A stretch of 64,000 nt of DNA. It comes from Myxococcota bacterium. GTDB taxonomy: Bacteria > Myxococcota_A > UBA796 > GCA-2862545. The notes under the pieces were generated by a model. It did not search any database, was not told where the DNA came from, and worked only from the letters and a program-made list of their open reading frames with translations. Positions 1 to 26,900 of this stretch are shown piece by piece (the first letter of the stretch is position 1; every line of letters starts with the position of its first letter). The stretch lies in the NCBI GenBank assembly GCA_039208735.1, contig JBCCQY010000019.1:17310-81309 (forward strand), given 5' to 3'. Position numbers and translations under genes: made by a program.

Positions 1-3000
1 CCCGCGCGCCCAACGGGCCGTGTCCCACCCCGAACTCATGGTGCACCACGCCTTCGTGCAGGCGCAGACGCATTGGCGCAATGAGGGCATCCTCGACAAG
101 GCGTGCCACCTCCCCTACGACCTCACGCTCTCCATCGTCGGACCGGGAGGCCGCAGCTACGAGGTGAACCGAGCCGATTCGCGAATCCTGGATGACTACG
201 GATCGCGAGCCCTGGCCTACTTCCACCACCTCCACCAGGCGCTCTACAACACCGGCATCGAACGCGAACTCGACGGCTACCGAACGTCCTCTCGGGTCGC
301 CCTGCTCGACGAGGCCGGCCTCGACCACGACCCCCGGAACGGTGCGGCCTGGCGCTCCGAGGATGGTTCGTGGAATCCTCTATTTTGGACCGACCCCAAG
401 GGGGAACCGCTCGAAGTTGACTTCACGGGAAAGCTGCCGGTATCGCTTTGGTTCAAGCATCTTCCACCGGCAACCCTGACGGTGCCCGACGGGGTGTCGT
501 TGTGGGAGGTCGACGCGACCATCACGCGCAATGGTGTGCCGGTGGTCAACGTGCCCGTCGAACAAGTCGACCGCCAACTCGTCCTCAACCTCGATTCCGC
601 TCGCTCCGACCTGCTTGACAGCTACACCTGGTCGGACCCCTTGGTCGGAGCGTTGGTCAGCCACGTGACCGTCGTCCGAACCGCGGGTGGCGAGGACCTT
701 CCGCCGTTCCTGGTTGCCGACCCCCTGGAGGTCCTGCCTGCCCCACCGGTCCGCGTCGGGGTGTACTTCTACACCACCACCGAACTGATCATCATCGGGG
801 GATTGCTTGCGGCACTCGCCACACTCGGGTTGCTCGTCCGCGCCATCTTCTACCAACCACGGCGACTGGCCGCCGAGCTGCGGTGGCGAACCCAGGATGC
901 GCCGTGGCTCGTCGAGGACGACCTTATCGATCTCGAGAAGCTCCAAGATGCCACCGAGTTCGCTCGCGAGTCGACCATCGCACTGCGAGACCCCTTCTCC
1001 TCACGTTGGGTGCCGGGTCGCCGAGGCCAATTCACCATTCGCGTGGCTCGCCGCTCCTTCGTCCAGGCACAACTCCCCCTACGCGACCATGAAGGCTTCC
1101 AGAACCTCACGGGAGCCCATTGGACGGCGACGGGCGCCAATGGCCTTCGGACCCAGGTGGAAGGCGTGCCGTCGAGTCGTCTCGATCGCCAGCTCGCCCT
1201 TCAAGTTGTGACCCGCCACGATCGCATCGATCACGCACAAATCGCCGATCTCGAAGGCGTTCTCGAGGGCCGGGAGCACTTGTCGGTTGTATTGGAAGTC
1301 GACGTCCAGGTCGAGGATGCGCTGGGGCACTTCGAGCCCGTTCATACCGTGCTCTACAAGGCGCTACGGCTTCGCTCGGTTCGCGGTCAGCCCCAACCCA
1401 TCGCCACGGTCCAGGTAGACGACGAGGGCCGCTACGTAGCGCTCCCCATCGATCGGCCCGAAGAGGGACCGTTCGGCGCCATCATCCTTCAGAATCCGGT
1501 TCGGAGGAGCTGCGTCACGCTCCCTGTGCATTGGACCATCCAGAATGCCCAGGCGGTGATGGCCAGCGAAGACGGCACGGTGGAGTGCCACGACGTGCCC
1601 GTTCGGATGTTGATCCACCGGGAACTCGTCGCTGCGCATTCGTTCGTTCAGGACTGTGCCGAGACATCCGAGGTCATCCAACTTGCGCTTCTCCACCCTC
1701 CGGACGTGCTTGCGGAGGCGTCGCCCAAGCAATGGACCGTCAAGGTGAGCGTCCCCGTGTCCTGGCATGTGGTGGGCCAGCCCCATGCTGCACACCACCA
1801 GACCCTGACCGCGCAGTATCGTCTATGGGACCCCGAACTTGCCCGCGCCGTGTGCATCGACTTCGGCGCCAGCGCAACGCGTATTCTGCTTCAAGATCCG
1901 GATCCTCACGAGTACGGCTACCTCCCCATGGCCCACGGGATCGAGGGGATCGAACCGATGGACTTCCCCGCCGAGGCCTTCCTCCACGAAGATGACCAGG
2001 TGACGTTGCCCCCCCATGCTCGCCACGTGGCTGAGCCGGGCCGATTGGTCGAGTCGATCAAACATGCGATTCTCGGCAACACCGCGTCGAACGACCTTCA
2101 CCAAGCGCTTGAGCGGGTTGTGAAAGCACTCCTCGAGAGCCGATTGGCCCGACGCTTACAGACGGATCCAGAGGTGCTGACGCCCACCGGCGGTCGACGA
2201 ACCCTCGAGCCGGGCCCTCGTCATCTCGTCGTTGCGACCGTTCCCAATGAGGCGCCCCCCGCGTACCGACAGTCGCTGGTGAACGGCATCCAAGCGAGCG
2301 AGGTGCTGGCCGACCGCGAAGTCCAGATTCTGGCCGAGGCCGAGGCCGTGGCCCTGTGGCGGGCGGGCCAGATTCTCGGCGAGACGAATGCGGAGCAAGC
2401 GCCCTTCCATCTGCTTGTCCTCGACGTCGGCGCGTCCAGTTCGGATGCCGCCGTCGTTCGGGTGGTCCCTCATCTCTATGAACCGCCCGAAATCCAGGTG
2501 ATCGCCACTGGTGGGATCGCACGAGGCGGACGAGACATCGACTTGGCGTTCCTTTGGGCGGCGGGTGACTTGTCAAGGCCTCGCCATCCGAACCTCACGC
2601 TGGAACGCCTGGCCACGGACGGAGAGCGCCTGCGCATGCGGGCCGCGATGGAGCACTACAAGAAGCTCGCCGCAGCAGGAGAATTGGACAAGCCCATCGA
2701 GCTGACCATTGCGGGCGCAGAGCGAGAGTTGTTCTTGAACCGCCGGGTCCACGATCTCGCGCACCACATGCAGGTCCGAAACCGGACGTGGGAGCTGGCC
2801 ACGGTGCCCTTGTTGGCCGCGGCGGGTCGACTGCCCGCTCCTGTGGCCTTGACCGAGGTGATCCTGACCGGTCGGGCCTCTCGCACCTACTGCCTGGCGG
2901 CCAACGTCCAGTCGGCGCTCAAGCACATGACGCCCGAATCGGTAACCGTGCGACTCGCTGAGGCTCCCATGCTCAAGGCCGCCGTGTCGTTGGGTGCGCG

Positions 3001-3442
3001 CCAGCATGCGATCGGCTTGGGCAATTTCACCACGAGCAACCAAGTGTTTCGAGACCGGCTGATCTACGTCTGGCGCGATGCCCGGCGGAGAGTCCACGCC
3101 ACTGAGTTGTCGCCGGCCTGGCGGAGCGTGCCCCCGGACGGCCTGGACATCGAGGTTGAGCTGGCCGAGTCTCGGGAGGCTCGCATTTTCCGCACCTGGG
3201 TGGGGCTTCCTGCTTCCATGGATGCCACGGGTCCCACGATCCAGCGTCCCCGGATGGACGTGCGGGATCTCGAGCGACTGCTGAACGGCGAAGGCGGTCC
3301 CCCGTGGGCGGTCGAAGGCATTCACCCGGTCCCGTTTGAGATGGGGAGCTTGCGCTGGCGACGGAATGTCGGTCAACGCCGCACCGCACGCGTGCGGATC
3401 CACATGGACGCCAACCAACGCGTCGACATTGGAGCAGTCTGA
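1..3442 (+). CDS. Membrane-anchored divergent Hsp70/actin-fold ATPase. 5' end probably lies outside the window (first in-window start is GTG 20).
   Basis: Frame is open from base 2. TM helix LIIIGGLLAALATLGLLVRAIFY at ~785-853. C-terminal half carries ordered Hsp70-like motifs: CIDFGASAT, TVPN, EAEAVA, LVLDVGASSSD, GGRDID, ILTGRAS, LKAAVSLGA. Confidence 0.85.
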   Translation, partial: PRAQRAVSHPELMVHHAFVQAQTHWRNEGILDKACHLPYDLTLSIVGPGGRSYEVNRADSRILDDYGSRALAYFHHLHQALYNTGIERELDGYRTSSRVALLDEAGLDHDPRNGAAWRSEDGSWNPLFWTDPKGEPLEVDFTGKLPVSLWFKHLPPATLTVPDGVSLWEVDATITRNGVPVVNVPVEQVDRQLVLNLDSARSDLLDSYTWSDPLVGALVSHVTVVRTAGGEDLPPFLVADPLEVLPAPPVRVGVYFYTTTELIIIGGLLAALATLGLLVRAIFYQPRRLAAELRWRTQDAPWLVEDDLIDLEKLQDATEFARESTIALRDPFSSRWVPGRRGQFTIRVARRSFVQAQLPLRDHEGFQNLTGAHWTATGANGLRTQVEGVPSSRLDRQLALQVVTRHDRIDHAQIADLEGVLEGREHLSVVLEVDVQVEDALGHFEPVHTVLYKALRLRSVRGQPQPIATVQVDDEGRYVALPIDRPEEGPFGAIILQNPVRRSCVTLPVHWTIQNAQAVMASEDGTVECHDVPVRMLIHRELVAAHSFVQDCAETSEVIQLALLHPPDVLAEASPKQWTVKVSVPVSWHVVGQPHAAHHQTLTAQYRLWDPELARAVCIDFGASATRILLQDPDPHEYGYLPMAHGIEGIEPMDFPAEAFLHEDDQVTLPPHARHVAEPGRLVESIKHAILGNTASNDLHQALERVVKALLESRLARRLQTDPEVLTPTGGRRTLEPGPRHLVVATVPNEAPPAYRQSLVNGIQASEVLADREVQILAEAEAVALWRAGQILGETNAEQAPFHLLVLDVGASSSDAAVVRVVPHLYEPPEIQVIATGGIARGGRDIDLAFLWAAGDLSRPRHPNLTLERLATDGERLRMRAAMEHYKKLAAAGELDKPIELTIAGAERELFLNRRVHDLAHHMQVRNRTWELATVPLLAAAGRLPAPVALTEVILTGRASRTYCLAANVQSALKHMTPESVTVRLAEAPMLKAAVSLGARQHAIGLGNFTTSNQVFRDRLIYVWRDARRRVHATELSPAWRSVPPDGLDIEVELAESREARIFRTWVGLPASMDATGPTIQRPRMDVRDLERLLNGEGGPPWAVEGIHPVPFEMGSLRWRRNVGQRRTARVRIHMDANQRVDIGAV

Positions 3443-5580
3443 TGAGGGAGCTGCTGGCCCAGCTACAGCAGTGGCTGTCTGGGGTCATTTCAACGTTCAA
3501 CCACCTGATATTCGAGCAGGCTCCGCAACTCGAACAAAAAATCGACCCCGATGAGCAAGACACGTCCCCTCGACTCGAGGCGTTGCCCCCGCGGCCCTCC
3601 CTGCAAGGGGCCCTGGCCGCGGCCCGTCCCGATGATGGGCAGCAACACGCCGGTCTACAGCTGTGTGTGGACTTCGGGACGAGCGCAAGTGCAGTGGCCC
3701 TCGCTCGCGACGAAGACGGGTACGAGCTGGCCAACCTCGACGTCGAAGACGCCTCCAACGGTTTTCGACCACGGCAGACGGTGGATTCCGTATTCGCACT
3801 TCCGCACGATCGAAACAGTCCGGACGGTGCGGTCATCGGACGACTCGCCGCTCAGCTCCGAAACAACCCTCTCGGCAGCCACTACGACTTTTACCAATCG
3901 CTGAAACGCCGCCTGTCGGATGACGAACGTGGCGATGACCACACCCCCGAATTCCTTTTGGACATCCAAGTCGCGATCGAGGAGCTGCTGTGGTTGGCCC
4001 TCTACCCGAAGAATTCGGCCACCCTCCGTTTTGCACGTGAGCATCTCAACTTGCGTACAGAGTACGTCGAGGCGCTGGATACCTACATCGGCTTGCAAGG
4101 CGACTACCAGGTCGATGAACTGCAAGACGGCGTGGCCCTCCATCTCGCTGTGCCCAACGCGTTTGGGGCATACGAGTGCCGCATTCTCAAGAACGCTGCC
4201 GGACGGGCCCTTGAGAACGTGCTGCGTCGACTCACCCAGGTGTGTGAATGGCCCGAGGTTCCTTTCCAGACCGAACCTCACCTGATTCGTGAGGCCGAGG
4301 CCGTGGTTTGGTGGGAGCATCGGTTCCGACGTGAAGCGGGGGAAGTGCGCGACCCCACGATGCCATCCGAGCACTGGCTCGTCTTCGACGTGGGAGGAGG
4401 CAGCACCGACGCAGCCATCGTGCTGGTGGAACACTCGGAAGGGGTCTCGGTCCAGACGGTTCGCCACTCGGGCGTGGCCCTCGGGGGGAACGACGTCGAC
4501 GAACTGATGCTCGCGACGATGGCGGCGCAGGACATGGAACCCGGCGATGATGTCAACATCCATGCGACAAAGTTGGTTGGCAACACCCCCCACGGTCGAG
4601 GATGGCTTCTGCTCGATTACCAAGGCCGAAAAGTTCGTTGGGCCAAGGGAATGGCCAACGATCTTAAAGGCCAGACCAAAGAGGTGCTGCAGGAGTGGAG
4701 CCGCTGGATTCGCGAGGTGGTCACGGGCCGCCGTCATCGAGGAAAGGAAGAGCCGGTCAAGCCGGTTGGCGGATTGGTGACACCATTCGAGCCTCCGGGG
4801 AGCACCCGGGTCCAACTCGAACACCAGGACTACGGACCTCGACTCGCCCAGTACTTTAGAGCCACCGTCTGTGCGCTCCTCGACGACCTATTCGAGAGCC
4901 GCCACGACGAACAAGGCCAGATCGACGCCCCCATCGCCCGCGTGGTGATCTCGGGACGCGGCTCGCTGCTGCCGGGGTTGAAGGACGCGGTGGTGAACTA
5001 CCTGCTCCAGCGGCAGCTGATTCGGGACGCCGACCAGGTTGCCTACGCGTCAGCCGACGAGGGAGCGGTGGTGGCCGACGCCCTGAAGCTGGCCTGCGTC
5101 AAGGGAATCTGGGAGGCGTCGATGGCTCCCAACCGGCACATGCTTCACTTTGTGAACCAGGAGATCACCTACACCGCGCTGCAAGGGGATAACAAGATTC
5201 CCATCTGGAAACATGGTTCGCGACTGACCCCTGACTCGAAGGCCCGAGCGGTGATTCATCGAACCTTTCGGCGACCACAGATATGGCGGTTCTACCAGCA
5301 TCGTTTCCCGCGCACCATGGAGCGGTACTTCCCGGACGGCTCGCGGTGGGGCGGCTTCCGCGTGATCGGAACACACCGCCTGCAGCGCTACGGGGAGGAC
5401 GATGAGGCGTACCTCATCGAATTCGACTGTGCCGAATGGACCCTCGGTCTTTGGAACATCACCGACCTGCGACAGCCGCAGTGGGTCCAGATGGGTCAGA
5501 GAAAGGGTGCCTTCAAATCGAAGAACAACCCCATTTCCCAATTGAGGTGGGGCTGGCGCTGGGAAGGGGAGCGAACATGA
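3442..5580 (+). CDS. Soluble divergent Hsp70-like ATPase (not canonical DnaK)
   Basis: Motifs CVDFGTSAS, SLKRRL, AVPNAF, IREAEAVV, LVFDVGGGSTD, LGGNDVD, VISGRGSLLPGL, LKLACVKG. TGATG overlap with the upstream gene. Confidence 0.9.
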   Translation: MRELLAQLQQWLSGVISTFNHLIFEQAPQLEQKIDPDEQDTSPRLEALPPRPSLQGALAAARPDDGQQHAGLQLCVDFGTSASAVALARDEDGYELANLDVEDASNGFRPRQTVDSVFALPHDRNSPDGAVIGRLAAQLRNNPLGSHYDFYQSLKRRLSDDERGDDHTPEFLLDIQVAIEELLWLALYPKNSATLRFAREHLNLRTEYVEALDTYIGLQGDYQVDELQDGVALHLAVPNAFGAYECRILKNAAGRALENVLRRLTQVCEWPEVPFQTEPHLIREAEAVVWWEHRFRREAGEVRDPTMPSEHWLVFDVGGGSTDAAIVLVEHSEGVSVQTVRHSGVALGGNDVDELMLATMAAQDMEPGDDVNIHATKLVGNTPHGRGWLLLDYQGRKVRWAKGMANDLKGQTKEVLQEWSRWIREVVTGRRHRGKEEPVKPVGGLVTPFEPPGSTRVQLEHQDYGPRLAQYFRATVCALLDDLFESRHDEQGQIDAPIARVVISGRGSLLPGLKDAVVNYLLQRQLIRDADQVAYASADEGAVVADALKLACVKGIWEASMAPNRHMLHFVNQEITYTALQGDNKIPIWKHGSRLTPDSKARAVIHRTFRRPQIWRFYQHRFPRTMERYFPDGSRWGGFRVIGTHRLQRYGEDDEAYLIEFDCAEWTLGLWNITDLRQPQWVQMGQRKGAFKSKNNPISQLRWGWRWEGERT

Positions 5581-7994
5581 CCGTCTGGATCATCTTCACA
5601 TTGGCCCGAACGTCGACGGCGTCCGAGCCTGGGATCCTGGCCGCTTTCCAGCGACTCCCGGGGGAGCAAGGCTCTCGGTTCGTGAACACCACGTACGGAC
5701 AGGAGGTCGTCTCGCCACTCGTCCAGACGCTCAATCCCAACGACTGCGAGGGGGAGGCCTGGGCGGTCGGCGACCCCCAAACCCCTGCGTTCGTCGGTGA
5801 ACAAACCGAGGATTCGGGTCCCGCCTCCCTCGATGAGTGGTCCTGGTGCGAGGACCCCGCGAGGCCCTTCCCCTTGTTTGTCGGTCACCTGAGCGTCCAG
5901 GTTGCCCCGCCCGAAGGGCGAAAGCTTGATGCTGTCCTCACCGAAGCGTTGGCTCCCTACGTGGGAATCCGAAAGGTGTGGGAGCACGGCTTTTACTCGG
6001 TCGTCAGCAAATCCTTGGTCAACGAGCGCCTGCCCTGTTCGCTTTCAGGGTCCCCTTCGCGCAATTCGGTGGCCCCCCTCAGTGCCACCAAACGACATGG
6101 TCTGGATTCCCAAGAGCCCTTGCTGGTGGGCTGGTTCCGAGCCGATGCGAGCCCATGGTGCGAGGTGTGGCTCGACGCCCGCAGCGATCGGCCACGCCTC
6201 TACTCGCTTGATAGCGCCTGCGCCGTCGAGCAATCCGACGGGCGAGCGACCATCACCGGCGAACTCCAACTGTTCGACATGTCGCGCAGGCCCTCTCAGC
6301 TGTGCGAGCAGCCACCGGACAAAACTAAAGGTCCAAGGCCGCACTTCTTGGTTCAGTCGACCATCGACATCGAATGGCGTGCCCACCCTGAGCCCGCCCG
6401 CGCCTTTTGGTTGTGGGTGCTGCTCGGCCTCATCCTCGTCGGAATCGCGGGGGCCGCCGGTTACAGACTCTTCAAGTCCTGGAACTCGCGGAGCAAAACG
6501 GCACCGTCGGGCTCTGGGTCGTCAGGATTTGACACCACGCCCGCGATGGACCTTCGCGCATGGATCGAAGTCCTCTGGGCCGAACTGCATGCCGATCGTC
6601 AGCGCGAGTTTCGTTCGCTCAAGGACGATCGAATGGGCGTTTCCCGCTGGGTCATGGACGAGCACTCCCCCGGGCGAAGGCTGCGGGAGGCCTTTGAGGA
6701 ACGAATGAAAACCCCCTTCGGGGGCCGCCCCCCCGAAGGCTGGACACAGGCCCTCGAAGTGATCCATGACAGCCCACCCTTTGATGGAAAATGGACCGAT
6801 GACCACTGGAATGCTGCTCTGTGCATGGTCCTAGCCGGGTTGAAGAGCGATGCGGATCCGGGCCGCGGCTACGCGGACGTTCCTGACGCGCTCCACGTCG
6901 TGATGACGTTCTTTTGGGATCAAACCCCTCTTCCCGATCAAAGCGCTCGCGCACACGATGCGGTTCCCAGGCTTCTTCGTCACTTCGAGGCGCTTCAGCT
7001 TACCGACAAGGAGCCGCACGACTCGTTCCCCCAACGCCGATCCACGGTCGTCAATCGGCCTCCGCCCGACCTCCTCGACGAAGACGAGGAGGAGGACGAC
7101 GAAAATACGCAGCAGTTGGACAGTGCGCAGGTCGCTCGACTGAGCCAACACCAAGAGGTGCAGGAATTCCGCACCATCTTGCGCAATGTTCGTCAACACC
7201 CAAAGGTCCAGGAGTTGCTGTCCAAGGTCCGCCGAGCCTGTAGCGAAGGCAACCTACAAATGATCTTGGAAGCGGAGAAACTCCTCCGGGAGAGCGACCG
7301 TTACCTAGATAAAGTCAACGGAAGCAGAATCCGGAAAGGCTCACCGTACCATGTGAAGTGGTTGCAGCGACACGAGACCCTGACGACCGGGCTGACGGAT
7401 ATCGAGACCTTTGTGAAGGCCATCCCGGTAGCGCTCACAGGGCAGGACTTCGACGGTGCCTTCGCCGATCTCCTTCGTACCGAGTTTCAGTATCAGCCGA
7501 AGCCTCGTCCAGACCTCGAAAGTCGAGGCATTGCGATTTGGAAGGAACTTTGCGGGCGAATCCAGGACACCCCCCGACCTGATGAAGGCGACAGTTCCGC
7601 AAAGAACCTGTTGCAACAGATTTACGATCGCTTCTTCCTTCCTTGGTTTCATGTTGCTCAATTCATGCAGTATTCGCTCCGCAACGAAGTTCCCAAGATG
7701 AGAAAGGGAACACCTAGTGACCACGTTGGCCTCCTCAACCAGTACGTCGCAAGGTTCGGCTACGAGTTCATGCGCATCCCGCTCTATGACGGCGAGCGAA
7801 AACAGAGCCACTACGCCGGAACAGACATGATGCAAAAACCTACCGAGCCGAGACAGTGGTACGAAGGACTAAGCAACGCTCCCCGGTTCGAATCCGGAAC
7901 GGTGATTTGGGTCGAAACGCCCAAACACATCCAATCACCGCTAGGCTACCTTGAACCCGGAACATTCCTCTACTTGGCTCCTCAAGCTTCGTGA
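5577..7994 (+). CDS. Single-pass membrane protein: Cys-containing N-terminal domain, TM, cytoplasmic helical domain with GrpE-like C-terminus
   Basis: ATGA overlap at 5577-5580 after a purine-rich RBS (GGAAGGGGAG). TM FWLWVLLGLILVGIAGAAGY at ~6405-6465. Acidic linker DEDEEEDDE. C-terminal region aligns by eye with 8094..9674. Confidence 0.8.
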   Translation: MTVWIIFTLARTSTASEPGILAAFQRLPGEQGSRFVNTTYGQEVVSPLVQTLNPNDCEGEAWAVGDPQTPAFVGEQTEDSGPASLDEWSWCEDPARPFPLFVGHLSVQVAPPEGRKLDAVLTEALAPYVGIRKVWEHGFYSVVSKSLVNERLPCSLSGSPSRNSVAPLSATKRHGLDSQEPLLVGWFRADASPWCEVWLDARSDRPRLYSLDSACAVEQSDGRATITGELQLFDMSRRPSQLCEQPPDKTKGPRPHFLVQSTIDIEWRAHPEPARAFWLWVLLGLILVGIAGAAGYRLFKSWNSRSKTAPSGSGSSGFDTTPAMDLRAWIEVLWAELHADRQREFRSLKDDRMGVSRWVMDEHSPGRRLREAFEERMKTPFGGRPPEGWTQALEVIHDSPPFDGKWTDDHWNAALCMVLAGLKSDADPGRGYADVPDALHVVMTFFWDQTPLPDQSARAHDAVPRLLRHFEALQLTDKEPHDSFPQRRSTVVNRPPPDLLDEDEEEDDENTQQLDSAQVARLSQHQEVQEFRTILRNVRQHPKVQELLSKVRRACSEGNLQMILEAEKLLRESDRYLDKVNGSRIRKGSPYHVKWLQRHETLTTGLTDIETFVKAIPVALTGQDFDGAFADLLRTEFQYQPKPRPDLESRGIAIWKELCGRIQDTPRPDEGDSSAKNLLQQIYDRFFLPWFHVAQFMQYSLRNEVPKMRKGTPSDHVGLLNQYVARFGYEFMRIPLYDGERKQSHYAGTDMMQKPTEPRQWYEGLSNAPRFESGTVIWVETPKHIQSPLGYLEPGTFLYLAPQAS

Positions 7995-8093
7995 TGCACG
8001 CGCGCCATGCGTCATGGAGCACGCCCATCCCCCCCTGGGCCATCGGAGCCCGGCATGTCCTTTTCTTGACCCCTCAAGGCCGCTGAATCGACC

Positions 8094-9674
8094 ATGCACA
8101 CACGAATCTCTATCGATCCCGATCATGTTTCCCGAGCCATTGGCGGCACCGGTTTTGCAAGAAATGCCTCCCCTTTGGGGTCGGCTGGCGTTACCGAAAG
8201 CATCCTCGTGCATCGCGGAGACTTTCCCGACCGCCACTCCATCGTCTACATTTTTCCTTATGCCAATACGCCCTTTGAGGAGTGGATCAACGACGCGTTC
8301 GAGTTTGAGGCTGCTGCCTGGCGTGCATACTGGACGGAACTCGAAGTCGCCCTCGAGCTGTTTCGTGCCCCGGCCCCCGGAGCACCACCCCAAGCCCCCG
8401 TCCTGACCGCCGTGCCGCTCCTTGGAGACCTCGAAACGGCGATCTTTCGCGCCAACTACACGCCGCTAGGCAGCGAAGCTTCCTTGCCCATGTTGGTTCG
8501 ACCCTACGTCGAGTGGCCACAAGCGGAGTCGCTCGCAGAACTGCGAGGGGAAGCTGCGATTGCAAAGCTCCACGGGCTCCTAAATCGCATCTGGGCCCGT
8601 CTTCATCAAGAAGGCTATCTTCCAAGTCCAACCGAGCATCTCTCGTTGGATTCGTTGGCCGAGGGCTTTGCTGAGCCGTGGCATCTCCTAAGCGATGGCG
8701 ACCAAGTGGTGCCCACACAGTTTCGCTTGTTTCATGCTGACTTTCGACGCATTCGACGCAATCGAGCTCGGCCTCGCCACATCAATACCCAGCCAGTTCA
8801 AAGGTCTTCATCGCCCGGGCCTTACACCTCCGCCTCATCCCTTGGCCCAGACGGCGACTTCCTGGCGGATACCGTTCGCGGAATCGATAGCCACTCGGTG
8901 TTCAAGGACACGATTTCGGAGATCATGGCACTGTCGAACCGGATTCTTCGGGATGCCCAACGAACCGTCGCTACGAGTCAACGTCTTCGGGAGCATGGCC
9001 AGCGGGGAACCCTGCAATCAGCCATGGCCTACCTCGGCGAGTGGGAAAGACAAGAAAACCTGCTTCGGCGTGGTCTCAATCTGCTGACGGTGTTCATGAC
9101 CGGCGCCGCGAAACTCATCGACCGGCCGGGTAGCATCGAAGACCGTGTGCAATCGGTCATGCAACTTCCCGAGTACCAAAGCGTTCAAAGCCCCGATTCC
9201 ACGAGATGGAAGCCAGGTTTCCAAGCTTGGAAACTGCTCTGCTCTAAAATCCCCGCCGCCCCTCGGCCAGACGGCGGAGCCGCCGCAGGCCATCAAGCCC
9301 AGGGTGGGATGTTCCGCCAAATCGTCCAGCCTTGGATAGCGCTTGCGCAATTCCTCGAAGAAGCGCTACCGGTTGAGGTGCCCGTGCTGCCAAGAACCGA
9401 TCCGGGTCACCAGAGCACCGCTCAACACGTCGCGAGTGCGCTGGGCTTTGAAGTTTCGCCCATTCCCTTGTACCACCCCACGCGCGTAGCCAGCCATTAC
9501 GAAGGTACCAATATCGATATCCAACCGGCACCGCCGGGCACCGTGTTTCACGACCTTCCTGCTCATCCGACGACCCACGACGGAGCCGTGGTCCGGGTGC
9601 AATTCCCCCACCTCATGCGCGCACCGTCGGGACAAGGGCAACCCTCGAGGATCTGGGTACTCCATTCGGGATGA
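8094..9674 (+). CDS. Soluble paralog of the cytoplasmic part of 5577..7994; GrpE-like C-terminus
   Basis: Shared blocks: WKxLCxxIxxxPRPDxG, PWxxxAQF, LxxEVP, GxExxxIPLY, RxxSHYxGT, GxVxxVxxP. Confidence 0.8.
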   Translation: MHTRISIDPDHVSRAIGGTGFARNASPLGSAGVTESILVHRGDFPDRHSIVYIFPYANTPFEEWINDAFEFEAAAWRAYWTELEVALELFRAPAPGAPPQAPVLTAVPLLGDLETAIFRANYTPLGSEASLPMLVRPYVEWPQAESLAELRGEAAIAKLHGLLNRIWARLHQEGYLPSPTEHLSLDSLAEGFAEPWHLLSDGDQVVPTQFRLFHADFRRIRRNRARPRHINTQPVQRSSSPGPYTSASSLGPDGDFLADTVRGIDSHSVFKDTISEIMALSNRILRDAQRTVATSQRLREHGQRGTLQSAMAYLGEWERQENLLRRGLNLLTVFMTGAAKLIDRPGSIEDRVQSVMQLPEYQSVQSPDSTRWKPGFQAWKLLCSKIPAAPRPDGGAAAGHQAQGGMFRQIVQPWIALAQFLEEALPVEVPVLPRTDPGHQSTAQHVASALGFEVSPIPLYHPTRVASHYEGTNIDIQPAPPGTVFHDLPAHPTTHDGAVVRVQFPHLMRAPSGQGQPSRIWVLHSG

Positions 9675-10219
9675 AGGCTCGGGTCCCGTGGCCGATGGCT
9701 GCGGTGGAGGTTCGGATGGATCCGTCCCGACCCGTGGTCCACTACCTGGATGCGCCAACGGCCCCCGCCATCCCGGCGTCCGGCTGGCTCGCGATGCGCC
9801 TGTACGGCCAGCCCCCATGGCGTCCTCGGGCCGTTCCCGCCCCCTGCGTGCGATGGTGGAGCCCTCCGCTCGCGGGTCCTGTGATCGCCTATGTGGTTGC
9901 GTCGGCCTTGGGGATCGAACGACCCAGGGTGGACTTCGATCACCCGACCCTTCGTGATTGGATCCGAGCCAGATATGAACTGGAGAACGGTCGCCTTGTC
10001 GAAGCTCGTCGGCTTGCGCGCCGGGTCGTTGCAGACTGGCCGGACTGGGCCCCAGGCTGGGTTCTCCTCGAGGCCGTAGCCCACCAGATCCCAGGCGACT
10101 CCCAGACCGAAGCCTACCGCCGAGGCCGGGGCCGCCACACGGACTGTGGGTTCGCCATGGGCTGCGGACCGTTCGAAATGACCATGAAGCCCTCCCCGAT
10201 CGCCAAAATGCTCCAGTAA
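9671..10219 (+). CDS. Hypothetical protein with a TPR-like helix pair
   Basis: ATGA overlap with the upstream gene. ARYELENGRLVEARRLARRVVADWPDWAPGWVLL is TPR-like. Confidence 0.6.
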   Translation: MKARVPWPMAAVEVRMDPSRPVVHYLDAPTAPAIPASGWLAMRLYGQPPWRPRAVPAPCVRWWSPPLAGPVIAYVVASALGIERPRVDFDHPTLRDWIRARYELENGRLVEARRLARRVVADWPDWAPGWVLLEAVAHQIPGDSQTEAYRRGRGRHTDCGFAMGCGPFEMTMKPSPIAKMLQ

Positions 10220-10227
10220 GCCAGGAG

Positions 10228-11013
10228 CTACCTACGACGAGGAACCGAAACGATGAGGCCCAGGCCAGGGCTTCGGTTCACGTTGGGGACCAACGAAACA
10301 GAAGCGCGCTTCTTCGAAGACCCCCGGCGCGCCAATAGCACGAAGGTGCTGACCGTAGCGACGACCGCAACACCGGCAGAGAGGTCGGCGGCCAGTGCGC
10401 GACGGGATTGGCGCCTCACAAAGGGCTCCGCTTCGCTATCGCAGAGCACGTCGCCCCCTGGCAAGGTGTTGCTGCAATAGGTGAGCGCTTCGCGTTCGGC
10501 ACGCTCCGACAGGATTCCCAACGTGGCCGCACTGACCGTCGACACCGCAGCCGTCGCCCCGAGCGTAACGATCGGCCACACCGGGCGAGCTTCGATAGGT
10601 TCAACCTCCAACGGCACCGAGGCGGAGGCTTCGGCCTCGCGAGCCTCCTCCAGCCGCTCGAGGCGACGCAACCGCTCCTCCACCGCAACGACGTCGTGGG
10701 CTTCTCCCGAGGCCAGGTACTCTCGATAGTATTGGATGGCCTGCGGATAGTCCGGAAGCCGCTCGTAGGCGTTGGCCATGTTGTAGAGCAACTGCGGCCG
10801 AGGGCTTAGGTCGTAGGCCTCACGAAACCGGGCAATCGCTTCTGGGTAACGGCCCGCTTCGTAGTGGGACGCTCCTTCGAGATAGGCGGCCAGCGCTTGT
10901 TTCTCCACATCATCGCGTTCACCGACTTCCGGATTTGGATCTTCCTGCGCGTGCGCAGGCCCGGCCACCAGCCATGCGGACATCAGCACCAACAGCGTCA
11001 CGGGGTCTCCCAT
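10228..11013 (-). CDS. Secreted/membrane TPR protein (kinase-associated type)
   Basis: Signal peptide ending AHA-Q. TPR YEAGRYPEAIARFREAYDLSPRPQLLYNMANAYERL. Two hydrophobic C-terminal segments. Overlaps the kinase stop. Confidence 0.85.
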   Translation of the reverse strand: MGDPVTLLVLMSAWLVAGPAHAQEDPNPEVGERDDVEKQALAAYLEGASHYEAGRYPEAIARFREAYDLSPRPQLLYNMANAYERLPDYPQAIQYYREYLASGEAHDVVAVEERLRRLERLEEAREAEASASVPLEVEPIEARPVWPIVTLGATAAVSTVSAATLGILSERAEREALTYCSNTLPGGDVLCDSEAEPFVRRQSRRALAADLSAGVAVVATVSTFVLLARRGSSKKRASVSLVPNVNRSPGLGLIVSVPRRR

Positions 11014-12524
11014 GGGTTGAGGATGTCCGAGATCACCTCGATCTCTTTGGATTTGTCCTCGGGTTCGGTCGGAGCCTCTTTCTCGCCTTGCTCTGGGGAG
11101 GCCGTGCCCTCTTGCTTCGCCGATGGCTCTGGCGCCACCACGGTCGGCTGTGGCGACGGCGCAGAAGGTTCGACTTGCTCTGGTTCCTCCGCAGGAGGGG
11201 CGGGCTCCGCCGTAGGCTCCTCGCGCGGAGGGGCCTCCTCCACCAGGGTCGGCACGGGGTCCTCAAGTTCCGCAGGAGCGGTTCGCACCGGCGCTTCCTC
11301 CGAGTCAGAGCGTGCTCCCGGAGGCCCCGCCGGCACGAGTAGCCCCGCCGCCACGACGATCACTGCGAGGATGAGCAAAAGCAGGAGGAGGCTCGAAAGA
11401 CCTGGTCGACGACGCGGTTGTGGAATCGCCGACCGGATGAAGACCGGCGCCTGCGTCACGGCGTTGGACGCACCGGGGTGGTTGTCGAGAAGGTCCATCC
11501 CCTTCGCCAACGCATACGTTCGCCGTTCTTGCTCTCGCCGTTCCGCATGATGCTCGGCAAAGGTCGAGGTCATGAAGAGTTGAAGACGTTGTTCCTGATT
11601 CGTGCCAAACGCGTCCGGCGCCGCACTCATCAGTGCGTCAAGGAAGGCCTTGGGGGAGGGGCAACGCTCCGCTTTTTCATAGCGCAGGGCCCAAACCACC
11701 AGGTCGTCGAGTTCACGGGGAATCGAAGGCTCGACCCGACGAGGGGCTTCAATGCCGCCTTGGAAGATCTTGGCCACGGCACTGGGACCATCTGGGAACA
11801 GGCGTTGCCCCGTCAGCATCTCCCACATCACGACACCGAGTTGGTAGATGTCGGTGCGTTGGTCGAGCGGCTGGCCATTGATCTGCTCAGGCGCCAGGTA
11901 CGAAGGTTTTCCCTTGATCACACCCGCTTGTGTGGGCTCCGAATCCCTCACCTTCGCGACGCCGAAGTCCAACAGCTTCACTTGGCCGTTGTAGCAGCAC
12001 ATGACGTTCGACGGGTTGACATCGCGATGGACGATGGCGAGTGAGGAACCATCTGCCAACTGCAACTGTTGAATGAAGTCGAGGGCTGAGGCCATGGAGG
12101 CGGCGATTCGGCAAACGATGCCGATCGGCAGTCGCGCGTTCGCCTGGCGTAACTTTCGGAGCACGAACGACAGCGTCTCGCCCGAGAGGTACTCAAGGAC
12201 AAGGTAGGGCCCGTCGTCATCCTCGCCGAAATCGAGCGCCCTCACGATGTGGGCATGGCTCATCGTGGCGGACACCTTGGCTTCTAGCTGAAAACTCTTC
12301 AGGGAATCTTCGCTTCGAGCCGCCCAGTCGTTGATTCGCTTGACCACAACGAGACGCTCGAACGAGCCACTGCCCTTCTGCAAAGCCAGATAGACATCCG
12401 CCATGCCACCCCGGCCAATCTGCTCGCCGATGTGGTAGGTGCGGATGGGAGCCTCCAGAAAGCGAGTAACAGTTAGCGCAGCAGACCATTGAGTGGCAAC
12501 CGACGCGGTAACAGCGAGTCGCAC
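10998..12524 (-). CDS. Transmembrane Ser/Thr protein kinase (start codon uncertain)
   Basis: IGRGGMADVY, VVKR, HRDVNPSN, DFG, YLAPEQ, DIYQLG; then a TM helix and a Pro/Glu-rich tail. GTG 12524 chosen to avoid overlapping the divergent gene. Confidence 0.9.
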   Translation of the reverse strand: MRLAVTASVATQWSAALTVTRFLEAPIRTYHIGEQIGRGGMADVYLALQKGSGSFERLVVVKRINDWAARSEDSLKSFQLEAKVSATMSHAHIVRALDFGEDDDGPYLVLEYLSGETLSFVLRKLRQANARLPIGIVCRIAASMASALDFIQQLQLADGSSLAIVHRDVNPSNVMCCYNGQVKLLDFGVAKVRDSEPTQAGVIKGKPSYLAPEQINGQPLDQRTDIYQLGVVMWEMLTGQRLFPDGPSAVAKIFQGGIEAPRRVEPSIPRELDDLVVWALRYEKAERCPSPKAFLDALMSAAPDAFGTNQEQRLQLFMTSTFAEHHAERREQERRTYALAKGMDLLDNHPGASNAVTQAPVFIRSAIPQPRRRPGLSSLLLLLLILAVIVVAAGLLVPAGPPGARSDSEEAPVRTAPAELEDPVPTLVEEAPPREEPTAEPAPPAEEPEQVEPSAPSPQPTVVAPEPSAKQEGTASPEQGEKEAPTEPEDKSKEIEVISDILNPWETP

Positions 12525-12597
12525 ATCGCCCCGTTTCGTGGTAGGACCGAGGCCGGATGCGGGTTTCAGCCGCACCGAACGATGGGGAGTCTGCACG

Positions 12598-14127
12598 ATG
12601 GTTCGCACTCTGGTTGTTCTCGCCGTCGGAGGCTGTTCGACTCAACTGGTCGAACGACGAGCGTGTCAAACGGACGATGAATGCCAACAAGCCTTCGACC
12701 AAGGCGCCATTTGTCTCGATGATGGGTACTGCAGCGGAGGCTCCGTTGGCCCCGTCGTCGATGGCGTCTCGGCCGAGATTGTACGCACGGTGGGCCTCGT
12801 CGACGTCTCCGGCTCCCTGCAAGACCTCGGCATTGGCATGCGCGACGGGGTGAGTGCTGCGCTGGCCGCTTGGAACAACGAGAATCCCGATAAACGACAG
12901 TTCGTCCACGAGGTTCGAGATGACCGCTACGACCCCGAACAAAGCGTTTCGCTGGCCGACGACCTGACCGTTGACGCCGAAGATGGCCAAGGGCGCTATG
13001 CGTTTGCCGTCCTCGGCAGCATGGGCTCTCCAACCTCAAACGCCATGCTGGGGCTCCTCAACGAGCGCCAGGTTCCCTTGTTTGGCACCTACAGTGGCGC
13101 GACCCATCTGCGGAGGGATCCGCCGGACCGTATTGTATGGAACACCCGTGCAAGCTACCGTCTCGAAGGCGAGACGATCACCCGGCACCTCGTCTCTCGC
13201 GACCCGAACCCGATCGCCGGCCAAAACGTGTTCGTGTTTGCCCAGTCCCCCATCGACAGCCCCACCGATGGCCAAGCGGACGCAGCACCCGATGCCGTCG
13301 GCGCCGACCAGGTGGCGCTCGACGCCTACGGCAACAGCGGCTACCGCGGCATTGTCGATGTCCTGACGCCCCTATTGGGGACCCAAGTCGACATCCCGCT
13401 TGCGACCTACCGTGCCACCAGCACCAACACGTCGGTCGCGGAATCGTTCTTCTTTCAGTGGATCGCGGGTCTCGTGAAGCGTACGCCTGGTCCCCAGGTC
13501 GACCCCGAGGGCTTGCGCGTCGGCATTGCCATGGTGCCTGTGGCCAGCACCGCCACGCCCTTCATCCGAGAGATCATCGACGGCTTTGAGCAGCTGCGGG
13601 CCGGAGAGAAGCCCAACAGCCTGACCGAGGCGGAGTGGGCGCTCGTCACCGAGAAACGGAAGGCCGAGCTGATGAAGGCCGAAGTGGTGTTCGCATCCAT
13701 CTCCCCGGTGGGCGACCAGCTCGGCTCAAATCTCGAAGCGGCCGGAGCCTCAACCTATTGCAATCGGGATTATCCAATCATCGTGTCGCAGGTCGTGCCG
13801 TTTCCAACGGGCGGAAGTACGGGCGCCCTGCAGTTTCGCAGCGACCTCGAAGCCTACGATGTCAATTTGACCCCAGGATTCGTAAACTTCGAAGGCTGGA
13901 TCGCGGGCCGCGTATGGGCCAGTGCGGTCGATGCAACCGGCGAAGAACTCACGGTGGACCGTTTGATCGACACGTTGAGTGACCCTGATTTCGAAGTCGA
14001 TTTGGGTGTCGGGTCCATTTTCCGATTCTCAACCAACGACCACGATGGATCGGACGCAGTGTACGGCTCCGTCCTGTCGACCTCCTGCCAATACGAAGAC
14101 TTTTTCTTCGACGGACCGCGCCGGTAG
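12598..14127 (+). CDS. Lipoprotein with Cys-rich N-terminus and a type I periplasmic-binding (LivJ/branched-chain amino acid-like) domain
   Basis: RBS GGGGAG, lipobox VGGC, CQTDDEC..C...C module. Motifs DDRYDPE, GSMGSPT, RASYRLE, SQVVP, FEGWIAG. Confidence 0.85.
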   Translation: MVRTLVVLAVGGCSTQLVERRACQTDDECQQAFDQGAICLDDGYCSGGSVGPVVDGVSAEIVRTVGLVDVSGSLQDLGIGMRDGVSAALAAWNNENPDKRQFVHEVRDDRYDPEQSVSLADDLTVDAEDGQGRYAFAVLGSMGSPTSNAMLGLLNERQVPLFGTYSGATHLRRDPPDRIVWNTRASYRLEGETITRHLVSRDPNPIAGQNVFVFAQSPIDSPTDGQADAAPDAVGADQVALDAYGNSGYRGIVDVLTPLLGTQVDIPLATYRATSTNTSVAESFFFQWIAGLVKRTPGPQVDPEGLRVGIAMVPVASTATPFIREIIDGFEQLRAGEKPNSLTEAEWALVTEKRKAELMKAEVVFASISPVGDQLGSNLEAAGASTYCNRDYPIIVSQVVPFPTGGSTGALQFRSDLEAYDVNLTPGFVNFEGWIAGRVWASAVDATGEELTVDRLIDTLSDPDFEVDLGVGSIFRFSTNDHDGSDAVYGSVLSTSCQYEDFFFDGPRR

Positions 14128-23943: not shown

Positions 23944-26900
23944 CGGGTTTCGGCTCCTATCGATGGCGCCTCGCGAAGCAGCCTCGCTCGATAGCGCATC
24001 CCCAGGCCCTCCAGCTCCTCGATCGCCCGAGAAACCTCGGCCGCGTCGTATCCGGTCTGGCCAAGCCAACGTCCAGCCTGGATGCGCATCGCCCGTGCAT
24101 AGATCACGTAGCCTTTCATGGAAGCGGGCATGTCGGACAGCACCTCGTCGAGCCGCGAGGCGGCTTGCGTCGCGTCCTGGAGCAACCAACGAATCTCGGC
24201 CTGACGAAGCACAATGATGTGGGAGAGCCAGACATCGTTGGCCTCATGGGCAAGAATCGACGCGCGTTCAAAGTGGTGCCGCATGTCCGTATCGTTCCCG
24301 AGGAACGCGGCCGCCCAGCCCGCCTCGAGGTGGACCCCTGCCGCCACGTTGGCCCGGTTTGTCCCTTCGGCCAGCGCTCGCAAGGCGGTATCGGCCGCGC
24401 GATCGTACTGCCCAAGCGCACTCTGCGCCGCGGCGACCCCGCTCGCGGTGATGACGCGGGCCTGGCGACCTGGCGGCCCCAAGTCGCGAACGCGTTTCGC
24501 AGCTCCCTCCGCCAATCGAAGCGCCCAACGAAAATCGTCCTGTTCCAACGCCAGCCCCGACCGATTGGCATCGAGCCTCGCGACGGTCGTCGCATCGCGC
24601 GTCTCTGCCCCAAACGCCTGGAGCCGTTGATGCACGCGAAGGGCCTCGTTGATCTCGCCCATACGAGTGAGGGCCCCTGCCAGATTGCCAGCCGCGCTCG
24701 TTGCGCCACTCCATTCCTCGACCTCGACGGCGATCGACAACCCCGCTTCGAATCGGTCGCGAGCCCCTGCGAAATTCAGCTGCAGCGTGTCGAGCACGCC
24801 AAGGGCGGAAAGCGTGTGGACCTGCAGCCGACGAACGCCCATCTCACCGTGGATGTGGAGAGCGGTGCTCTGGTGTTGGCGTGCCACCTCGATTTGGCCT
24901 GACATCTTGGCCCATTGACCGAGCAGGCCATGCACTTCCGCCTCCCGACGCCGCATGCCTCGGCCCGCCTCCAATGCCTGATCAAGACGACGTTTTGCGC
25001 CATCGAGATCATCGTGCAAAAGCCCCACGCCTCCGAGCATGACCAGCGCAAGCACGATGAGTTCCTGATGCCCAGCGAGCCGGCCCCGGCTTAGTGCGTA
25101 GCCCAGATGCCCTCGTGCCTCGTCGCCGTCATCTGCGTGAACCCGTCCCAATGACAGGGCCACCCACCCCTCGAGGACCGGATCCCCAGTGTTCGCCGCC
25201 AGAACACGAGCCTCTTCGAGGATCTCCATGGCTTCCGCCGGCCGCTCTTTGAGCCTTAGCACCCGACCGTAGCTCCGGGCCGTGGCCACACGAAGCCTCG
25301 CATCTTTGGCGAGTTCGTAGGCACGCTCGGCCCATAGATTGGCTCGCGCATCGCCCGCTTGTAGGGCCAGTTGTGCGGCGACGTCGAGCAACGCGGGGTG
25401 CTCGGGCTCTACGGCGAGCACGCGCTCGACGATGGTCAGACCGTGGCGCATCGGCCCACGATGCAGGATCACCCGTCCCGCGGCCACGGCACAACCGGCG
25501 GCCGCCGTTCGATCCCCAAACCGCAGGCCGGCTTCGATGCCCGCCACGAAATTGTCGAGATCGCGCGCCTGCCGCGCCCGAAGTGGGTCGCGGGGAGGAG
25601 AAAGCAGGTTGCTCGGCCCCCCCATCCGCGCAAACCACCGCGCATGACGGAGCCTCACCGCCTCGACGTCATCCAGCGTTCGCGACGCATACAGTCGAAC
25701 CGACTCATACAATCGGAACCGGGGTCGGCCCCGCTCACCGGTGCGCTGGGCCACAAGGAGGGAGGCGTCGAGGAGCTTCTCGATGAATTCCGCCAGCCAT
25801 GGGGTGGCAGCCTCCGTCCCCACCACACGTTCCGCATCTTCGATGGTGAACCCACCTCGAAACACCGAAAGTTCGGCCACGCTACGCTGGGCTTCGGCAG
25901 ACAGCTGATCCCAGGAAGCTCGAACGACCGTTTCCAAAGCCCCATGACGCTCGTCGGATTGGCCTAAGAGCTGAAATCGTTCGGCTAACCGGGATAGCAT
26001 CTCGCTTGGCTCAAGGGAACGTGCCCGCGCGGCCGCAAGTTCAAGGGCGAGAGGCAAGAAGTCGAGTTTTTTGGCCAATTCCGCAAGCACAGGCTGCGCT
26101 TCGGTGGCTCCCCAAGCATCCAATCCACCCGCGCGGGCGGCTCGATCGCGCAACAGCGCCACCGCATCGGTTGAGGCGAGCGGCGCAATCCGGACGACAG
26201 TGGCCTGTGCCTCCTTTGCGAACCCCGTCCGGGACGTCACCACGAACCGCGCTTCGGTCGCGATATCGAGCCACACCTCGAGCACCTCGTGCGCCGACTC
26301 CAAGACCTGATCTGCATTGTCCAGAAGGAGGAGCGCGGAGCCCAACCCCCGTAGCTGATGACCGACTTGCCGGACCACTTCCGCTTGGTCGCCAGAACCT
26401 AAAGGATGACCGAGCGCCGCCGCTACCGCCGAGCAAACCCCCTGAACGTCACGCGCTGACGATAGCTCGGCGAAGGTCGGGGCTCCCTCGTAGTTCCGGT
26501 CCATGAGTACCGCGTGGCGTCGAACCAGGGCCGACTTGCCAACTCCACCAGGACCCTGCACCATCACCAGCCGCGACGTCTCCAGCGCTCGGGCCAAGAT
26601 GCCGAGGTCCGCATCCCGACCAAACAACGTGCCGCCACCCGGGTGTGACCCCGAGCCGTGCGAACCTGAGTTGGTGGAGTTGGTGGCGGGACCCACCGCC
26701 AGGTCCCGGTCCGATGTGGCCTCGGTCATCCAATCGGCAAACGAAGGTCCGGTCGCGACCAATCCGGAAAGCGCACTGGCCAAGCTAAGGCAATCTCCGA
26801 ACCGAGCCTCCACGTCATGAGCAAGGCACTGGGCCACGAGCGGACCGAGCCCCGGTAGGGCTTCATCGATCGACCGTTGCAGCTCGCCCATCGCAAGCGC

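Follow-up and report, generated by a model that had tools for sequence, protein, structure and literature searches.

Pairs of a SEDS-family polymerase and a class B penicillin-binding protein (PBP), the core enzymes of wall building, are known to be run by MreB, by FtsA, or by sporulation and kinase networks. Such a pair stands beside Hsp70-type ATPases in an eight-gene operon (genes A to H) of a Myxococcota bacterium (assembly GCA_039208735.1, here genome G000), at the edge of a 64,000-nucleotide stretch of contig JBCCQY010000019.1 (C19) referred to here as the window (C19:17310-81309, window base 1 being C19:17310). In design, the operon resembles RodA-PBP2 of the elongasome with MreB, and FtsW-FtsI of the divisome with FtsA, in having adjacent SEDS and class B PBP proteins with catalytic motifs, an actin/Hsp70-fold ATPase and membrane partners of a single span. 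In contrast to both, its proteins A and B are two to three times the normal size and carry FHA-like and unmatched outer domains, its ATPases are of the Hsp70 type rather than MreB or FtsA, three of its components (C and domains X and Y) belong to no family, and the locus is rare and additional to the dcw cluster. The operon is real, conserved and rare, and apparently undescribed in the searchable literature; no description of this combination of parts was found in the portion of the full-text literature open to searching.

Other described systems resemble parts of the operon. With DnaK-DnaJ-GrpE and the specialised Hsp70s, which we take to include HscA, HscC and YegD, ATPase E shares a nucleotide-binding domain (NBD) with all catalytic residues, and its neighbour, domain X, has a predicted helix-helix-β-head order like that of GrpE. 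Unlike these systems, the operon's ATPases score 11-19 bits against family models, form a clade of their own and end in a short C-terminal domain, one of them spans the membrane, no J-domain gene was found in the operon, and X is at most a possible relative of GrpE. In mycobacteria, FHA, PP2C, RodA, PbpA and kinase genes form a cluster.

A further parallel is mycobacterial MviN, a pseudokinase with aromatic residues in its ATP pocket that damps wall synthesis, according to a review (PMC12599244). The MviN pseudokinase-FhaA system and the operon both combine a kinase fold that has aromatics at positions of the ATP site with genes for wall synthesis and domains of the FHA-like type. MviN offers the nearest analogy for domain Y and a precedent for a pseudokinase that tunes wall synthesis. 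In contrast to MviN as described there, Y is a free or X-fused protein of 210 residues and not part of a flippase, and the operon holds no active kinase or phosphatase. Its FHA-like regions also differ in following a membrane span and in lacking what we take to be the phosphothreonine-binding Ser. The words Hsp70 and SEDS are absent from the review. Finally, SrfABC clusters likewise encode a large, divergent actin/Hsp70-fold ATPase within an uncharacterised operon, but at E<=1 none of the window genes matches SrfB or SrfC, and no SrfC GTPase gene was found in the operon.

Organization of the operon

The original prediction, made from the letters of the window, described its first five genes as a doubled Hsp70-like and GrpE-like cluster, with a membrane-anchored and a soluble copy of each. 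The five co-oriented open reading frames (2..3442, open at the edge, 3442-5580, 5577-7994, 8094-9674 and 9671-10219) were confirmed, along with their junctions (TGATG at 3440-3444; ATGA at 5577-5580 and 9671-9674) and the sole gap of 99 bp. The window edge truncates the operon, which starts 10.2 kb before the window. Retrieval of the upstream sequence, as had been proposed, recovered the remainder of the first gene and three further genes of the same orientation, linked by overlaps of 4 bp and a single gap of 6 bp, but none of the J-domain or vWA genes that had been envisaged. All eight genes overlap or nearly abut. They are named here A, B and C upstream, and D to H for genes 1 to 5 of the original prediction, as follows:

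Gene A, C19:7155-10628: SEDS-family protein, 1157 residues; N-terminal span, predicted extracytoplasmic insert of ~550 residues, SEDS core with NLHSD (Asp1025)
Gene B, C19:10625-14464: class B PBP, 1279 residues; one N-terminal span, degenerate FHA-like region, pedestal, transpeptidase
Gene C, C19:14471-16843: 790 residues, no membrane span, no family match
Gene D (gene 1), window 1..3442 (+), gene start at C19:16840, 470 bases before the window: 1303 residues; signal-like start, extracytoplasmic domain, one span (782-838), cytoplasmic Hsp70-type ATPase domain from ~1850
Gene E (gene 2), 3442..5580 (+): 712 residues; predicted N-terminal amphipathic helix, Hsp70-type NBD (~3658-5109), short C-terminal domain
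Gene F (gene 3), 5577..7994 (+): 805 residues; signal-like start, Cys-containing extracytoplasmic domain, one span (6402-6458)
Cytoplasmic domain X of gene F, 7152-7991 (+): helical bundle, long helix, small β head; possibly GrpE-like
Gene G (gene 4), 8094..9674 (+): 526 residues; domain Y (8094-8759) fused to a second copy of domain X (8859-9671)
Gene H (gene 5), 9671..10219 (+): 182 residues; weak TPR match

The proposed membrane spans are borne out, with one hydrophobic span followed by basic residues in each of D (residues 418-436 of the full 1303-residue protein) and F (residues 276-294) and no such span in E, G or H. Both proposed paralogous pairs also hold, D matching E at a phmmer E-value of 5e-12 and F matching G at 3e-25 over ~260 residues. 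Gene G had rightly been assigned domain X, but is a fusion of Y and X rather than X alone, and for gene H, read as TPR-like, a TPR match exists (E 0.0019) that lies under the cut-off, with no homologue in other system loci (best E 0.33). The upstream wall-synthase pair, likely the output of the system, and the pseudokinase-like domain of gene G lay beyond the view of the original prediction, whose interpretation is overall partly supported.

Parts of the operon stretch are also present on related contigs assembled in two other studies, with identities of 95-99% for many of them. Counted by hand, third codon positions account for 29 of the 40 differences listed (there are 103 further ones), these being, again among those listed, 16/19 in gene D, 4/5 in gene F and 9/16 in gene G. 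The genes are under coding constraint, as the listed differences fall mostly at third positions. No signature of a recent island was found, as 37 of 150 random windows are equally distant in composition and no tRNA lies nearby.

An additional SEDS-PBP pair

Judged by their motifs, genes A and B encode a SEDS polymerase and a class B PBP with intact catalytic motifs. Gene A, with 11 predicted membrane spans, matches Pfam FTSW_RODA_SPOVE at E 2.4e-5 and 24 bits as a protein (cut-off 26.4) and at 27 bits, over the cut-off, in the genome scan; three of the seven A proteins scanned pass this cut-off. Its NLHSD aligns with VHND of the genome's own FtsW, the AEF, DFG and TG-x-x-LP-x-x-S-x-GGS motifs align as well, and NLH[SN]D is kept in all seven intact homologues. 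By a motif that we take to be shared, the Asp presumably corresponds to Asp262 of RodA. In E. coli RodA this residue is described as catalytic and situated in periplasmic loop 4 (PMC10449877). Gene B matches the Pfam Transpeptidase family (E 1.7e-10) and FtsI/PBP2 structures (best E 1e-15), and contains the catalytic motifs S794-V-Y-K, S863-W-N and K1095-T-G; within SxxK, Sx[ND] and KTG, the Ser, Lys, Ser and KTG are invariant in the seven aligned homologues from intact loci. An FHA-like stretch follows the first span in both A (by eye) and B, with a Pfam FHA match in one of seven B members, and both stretches are predicted to lie outside the cytoplasm.

Neither protein belongs to RodA-PBP2 or FtsW-FtsI proper, given 31.6 bits against the ftsW equivalog (cut-off 337.5) and 34.7 bits against mrdA (cut-off 455). 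The housekeeping ftsW and ftsI form a separate pair in the dcw cluster on contig C91, and the A-B pair is therefore additional. Gene C has no match in Pfam, NCBIfam, PADLOC, PDB or the ESM Atlas, its Atlas model being too poor to use; its homologues are present in related loci.

A second extra wall-synthase locus of the same genome (C42:38409-44067) comprises two small genes, a PP2C-like gene and a 1060-residue SEDS-PBP fusion with intact motifs, where the PP2C label and the resemblance to an FHA cluster are our assumption. MreB matches occur in 143 of the 154 genomes of the order, most of them with two copies. G000, as well as G001 and G126, has no MreB match, and G000 has no canonical RodA, reflecting a possible loss of the elongasome or an assembly gap.

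Two Hsp70-type ATPases

Genes D and E encode predicted Hsp70-type ATPases, as had been proposed. The E profile matches Hsp70 NBDs in the PDB (best E 2.6e-10), all 60 matches listed being Hsp70 or DnaK. Residues D77, G79-T80-S81, K155, E284, D316, T322 and D323 of gene E are invariant in 16/16 sequences, so that all Hsp70 ATPase residues are kept (the NBD positions, Lys70, Glu171 and the phosphate and adenosine motifs, are named by what we take to be DnaK numbering). Gene D of the window keeps the Lys, Glu and Asp with Ala/Ser changes in both phosphate loops, and is decayed in G126. The signature motifs originally quoted for the two ATPases are present. Among the 16 E members, Pfam HSP70 is matched by eight, MreB_Mbl weakly by three and FtsA by one. 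In a quick tree, built with neither an MreB nor an FtsA outgroup and leaving out the decayed D of G126, the 16 E and six D sequences each form one group and together stand apart from 12 other Hsp70s (SH-aLRT 98; long branches). A DnaK equivalog score of 14.8 bits against 822 indicates that E is not a canonical DnaK. Approximately 150 conserved residues follow its NBD, where the PDB matches listed stop, and the outer domain of gene D has no PDB match. A vWA fold for this outer domain was a guess that found no support.

Within the tree, E of the window groups with E of genomes G050 and G051, from family f2, and not with G019 and G083 of its own family; this disagreement suggests transfer or old paralogy in the history of the gene. 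The nominally soluble ATPase E is likely attached to the membrane, since many E proteins start with an amphipathic helix (p<0.05 in 8/16 rows, some starts being uncertain). Elsewhere in the genome, a second, divergent GrpE gene adjoins an Hsp70 gene (C23:929-2077), and 2-5 matches to GrpE were seen in each of several relatives.

Domains Y and X

A search with gene G of 1.84 billion representatives returned 27 matches. Fourteen are stand-alone proteins of ~210 residues that align to residues 1-229, 11 align to the C-terminal part (one of them gene F of the window) and two are fusions, one being gene G itself; a contig from another study crosses the Y-X junction without gaps. The protein was modelled in two parts, Y together with its Y rows and X separately.

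Domain Y is confidently modelled with a minimal protein-kinase fold (predicted local distance difference test, pLDDT, ~90). All Foldseek rows listed are protein-kinase-like, with a best E of 0.037, probability up to 0.96 and none at E<=0.001, and a wide structure search (VIA) returned OspG (Z 8.9, root-mean-square deviation (rmsd) 3.4, 135/169 residues) and YihE (Z 8.1, rmsd 11.1). The sequence profile alone was not significant for a kinase (E 0.32), and neither a sequence search of the PDB nor the ESM Atlas gave anything usable for Y. In 17/17 sequences, Phe or Leu (Phe in the window) takes the position of the VAIK Lys on β3; the αC Glu is kept, an Arg occupies the gatekeeper position, the HRD and DFG Asp residues are not conserved, and Trp/Phe-Arg stands in place of DFG, in a register set by eye rather than from superposition. 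Because the VAIK Lys, HRD Asp and DFG Asp are lacking, Y is likely a pseudokinase devoid of catalytic residues. In the model of X (pLDDT 84, pTM 0.84), a helical bundle is followed by a long and then a short helix and by a head of five strands, and the order of long helix, short helix and small β head resembles GrpE.

Distribution and conservation

The system was found in 11 genomes, with the following content:

G000 (window genome): A-B-C-D-E-F-G(Y+X)-H
G050: A-B-C-D-E-F-Y
G051: A-B-C-E-F-Y; gene D not found
G126: A-B-C-(D)-E-F-Y; D degenerate; X present in two additional genes
G047 and G049: gene D not found; locus preceded by a LysM gene and by a Y-like gene with a membrane anchor
G083: two contig ends, one with B-C-D and the other with D-E-F-Y; A located separately
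G019: D-E-F-Y together; A, B and C each elsewhere, at three sites
G087: A-B-C-D, running to the end of the contig; neither E nor Y found
G194: degenerate A-B fusion, with E, membrane X and weak C-like and Y-like genes; D not found
Acidobacterial genome (Thermoanaerobaculia): A-B-C-D-E-F-Y

The order A-B-C-(D)-E-F-Y is kept in G050, G051, G126, G047, G049 and the acidobacterial genome, and the conserved core is A-B-C-E-F-Y. The expectation of a conserved neighbourhood thus holds for this core but not for the doubled five-gene set: the membrane ATPase D was found in 7/11 genomes, a second X in 2/11 and H only in G000, so symmetric doubling is not the conserved unit. Absence of D from G047, G049, G051 and G194 is weak evidence, since queries with long proteins also missed the known D and B of G495. 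The anticipated co-occurrence of ATPase and X is upheld, as gene E is directly followed by a membrane-anchored X gene (gene F) in 10/10 genomes with E, including G047 and G049, where X scores E ~0.1 against the X profile and retains the invariant columns.

Within the order of the source genome, the E profile is found in 8/154 genomes and the B profile in 9/154, all eight E carriers being shared and the ninth being G087; E is found in 6/401 genomes of a phylum sample and 1/301 of the acidobacterial class. The genetic link between ATPase module and synthase is well supported by this co-occurrence and by gene order. The co-occurrence extends to broken-up operons such as that of G019, whose A, B, C and D-E-F-Y persist as long open frames spread over four sites. 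A protein search with the PBP profile returned two proteins and missed known members, and is uninformative on range. At least 15 loci listed in a metagenome scan were ordinary Hsp70s unaccompanied by other system genes, and a viral scan gave one Hsp70-like gene unrelated to the system.

Several loci bear additional genes. In G047, gene A is preceded by a LysM gene (E 0.00096) and a weakly matching SH3b-like one (E 0.017); this region (L043:5512-9125), like its match in G049, encodes a LysM protein, a receptor-like protein whose cytoplasmic part contains a Y-like domain, and the SH3b-like protein, and in G049 the LysM protein is fused to a subtilase-like domain. In G126 (L013:14130-20096), the genes after Y are, in turn, a PEGA-X gene, one that contains two X-like regions, and one of the NACHT-LRR type, and a second copy of E is present on other contigs.

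Proposed mechanism and alternative explanations

It is considered roughly an even chance that the operon encodes an accessory peptidoglycan synthase (A-B) whose switch is not MreB or FtsA but an Hsp70-type cycle of its own. We infer each physical step of this mechanism from gene content and order, motifs, co-occurrence, the identity of D and E and the modelled fold of Y. ATPase E would sit at the inner face of the membrane by means of its N-terminal amphipathic helix and cycle ATP, while the one-span protein F would use its outer domain to read envelope state and its cytoplasmic domain X to reset E, as a nucleotide-exchange partner. The dead kinase Y and protein C may act as scaffold or client, linking E to A-B, and D would be an optional second, membrane-tethered ATPase with an outer sensor of its own. 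The output would be local, conditional building or repair of the wall beside the housekeeping FtsW and FtsI. A bolder form of the proposal, tentative and somewhat less probable, is that the operon represents a third wall-synthase architecture besides elongasome and divisome, in which an outside signal starts wall building by way of a J-domain-free Hsp70 cycle, a transmembrane receptor serving as exchange factor and a pseudokinase brake.

If the mechanism is true, it would give peptidoglycan synthesis a control logic of a new kind and the Hsp70 fold a new job. The operon joins a known enzyme pair to a control module of no known kind, which would define a new class should the Hsp70-cycle switch be demonstrated, and adds three protein families lacking a Pfam model (C, X and Y) and a likely pseudokinase of very small size. 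Because most of the operon genes escape annotation, further systems of this sort probably remain hidden.

Several observations weigh against this mechanism. No J-domain or DnaJ match is found in any of the eight operon genes, as the original prediction had observed for its five genes, which leaves the ATPase without a J-domain partner in the operon; the helix of the window E is not significant alone (p 0.148). The identification of X as GrpE-like was not demonstrated. By sequence, X has no Pfam match to GrpE, a negative PDB search and hhalign E-values of 0.084 and 0.23, and a scan of 65251 ORFs with the X profile ranked true GrpE at 26014. By fold, Foldseek placed GrpE (1dkg) at rank 48 with E 1.4, rmsd 19.7 and a TMt of 0.41, the highest listed, which is a weak hint. 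GrpE was also not listed in two VIA searches with X, where the helical bundle dominates the lists, and a global comparison did not rise above shuffles (76/100 as high), leaving the kinship of X to GrpE about evenly balanced. The profiles used to survey genomes were partly built from carriers, which within the order amount to about six genera. Most importantly, in G194 (C69; L054/L055) a single long frame encodes both the A-like and the B-like part, with SVYH in the PBP, no KTG and no SEDS catalytic motif, placing an apparently inactive synthase beside E, X and Y-like genes; the ATPase module can therefore persist without an active synthase.

Alternatively, D and E may be actin-like polymer scaffolds that steer A-B as a stand-in elongasome or divisome, with X as a membrane adaptor like RodZ or MreC rather than an exchange factor. 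MreB and FtsA are anchored to the membrane by amphipathic helices, and the helix at the start of many E proteins would suit this unlikely alternative, as would the lack of an MreB match in G000 and G126 and of a canonical rodA in G000, and the weak Pfam matches to MreB_Mbl (3/16) and FtsA (1/16) among E members. However, MreB is present in 6/8 carriers and 143/154 genomes of the order, both negatives being incomplete assemblies, and the 60 listed PDB matches together with Pfam HSP70 in 8/16 members place E with Hsp70. Replacement of the elongasome as a general rule was rejected. An equally low probability is given to a conflict or defence system, or a wall-anchoring part of a contact apparatus, whose outer domains would sense attack or a neighbour while the synthase patches or remodels the wall. 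This explanation concerns purpose and is compatible with the Hsp70-switched synthase. It draws on the rare and patchy range (8/154, 6/401, 1/301), the disagreement of the E tree with families, rapid divergence, fusions and duplications, and the NACHT-LRR gene after the G126 operon; against these stand the lack of a convincing PADLOC match and of any nuclease or toxin domain found, a composition ordinary for the genome with no tRNA nearby, and the scattered intact genes of G019, which look domesticated.

The original conception of a stand-alone, doubled Hsp70/GrpE signalling machine, to which the wall-synthase genes are unrelated neighbours, now appears very improbable. Although D-E-F-Y occurs with no adjacent A-C in G019 and the synthase is degenerate in G194, every E carrier examined has a B orthologue, A-B-C overlaps or abuts D or E in most loci, and doubling is not conserved. 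Least probable of all, and hardly to be expected, is a diverged member of a catalogued cluster, either SrfABC-type or the Hsp70/kinase/phosphatase/vWA cluster of E. coli yegD. One of the 16 E members matches SrfB (E 0.0008), and among NCBIfam rows E scores best with PRK11678 (E 0.00045; 19 bits, cut-off 331), which we take to be YegD; these matches are confined to a shared phosphate-2 stretch or to single members, no SrfC, PP2C or vWA match is found in the eight genes, and no paper joining these components was found in the searchable literature. A match to a described operon, which the original prediction had left open, was looked for; the operon is not SrfABC and has no convincing PADLOC match, the only PADLOC 2023 matches being two of 36-42 residues and 14-17 bits, both in gene E.

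Neighbouring genes and minor observations

On the minus strand of the window (10228-12608), two genes, which encode a TPR membrane protein and a Ser/Thr kinase that looks intact, run toward the end of the operon and come within 8 bp of gene H; this pair was not seen beside the other system loci read. Upstream of gene A on C19 (L001:6000-6990) lies the frame of a LysR-type regulator, its family read from sequence, with a mid-frame TAA indicative of a broken gene or an assembly error. On a viral contig, an ordinary Hsp70-like gene (L059:9953-11506) is situated beside a lysozyme-like frame.

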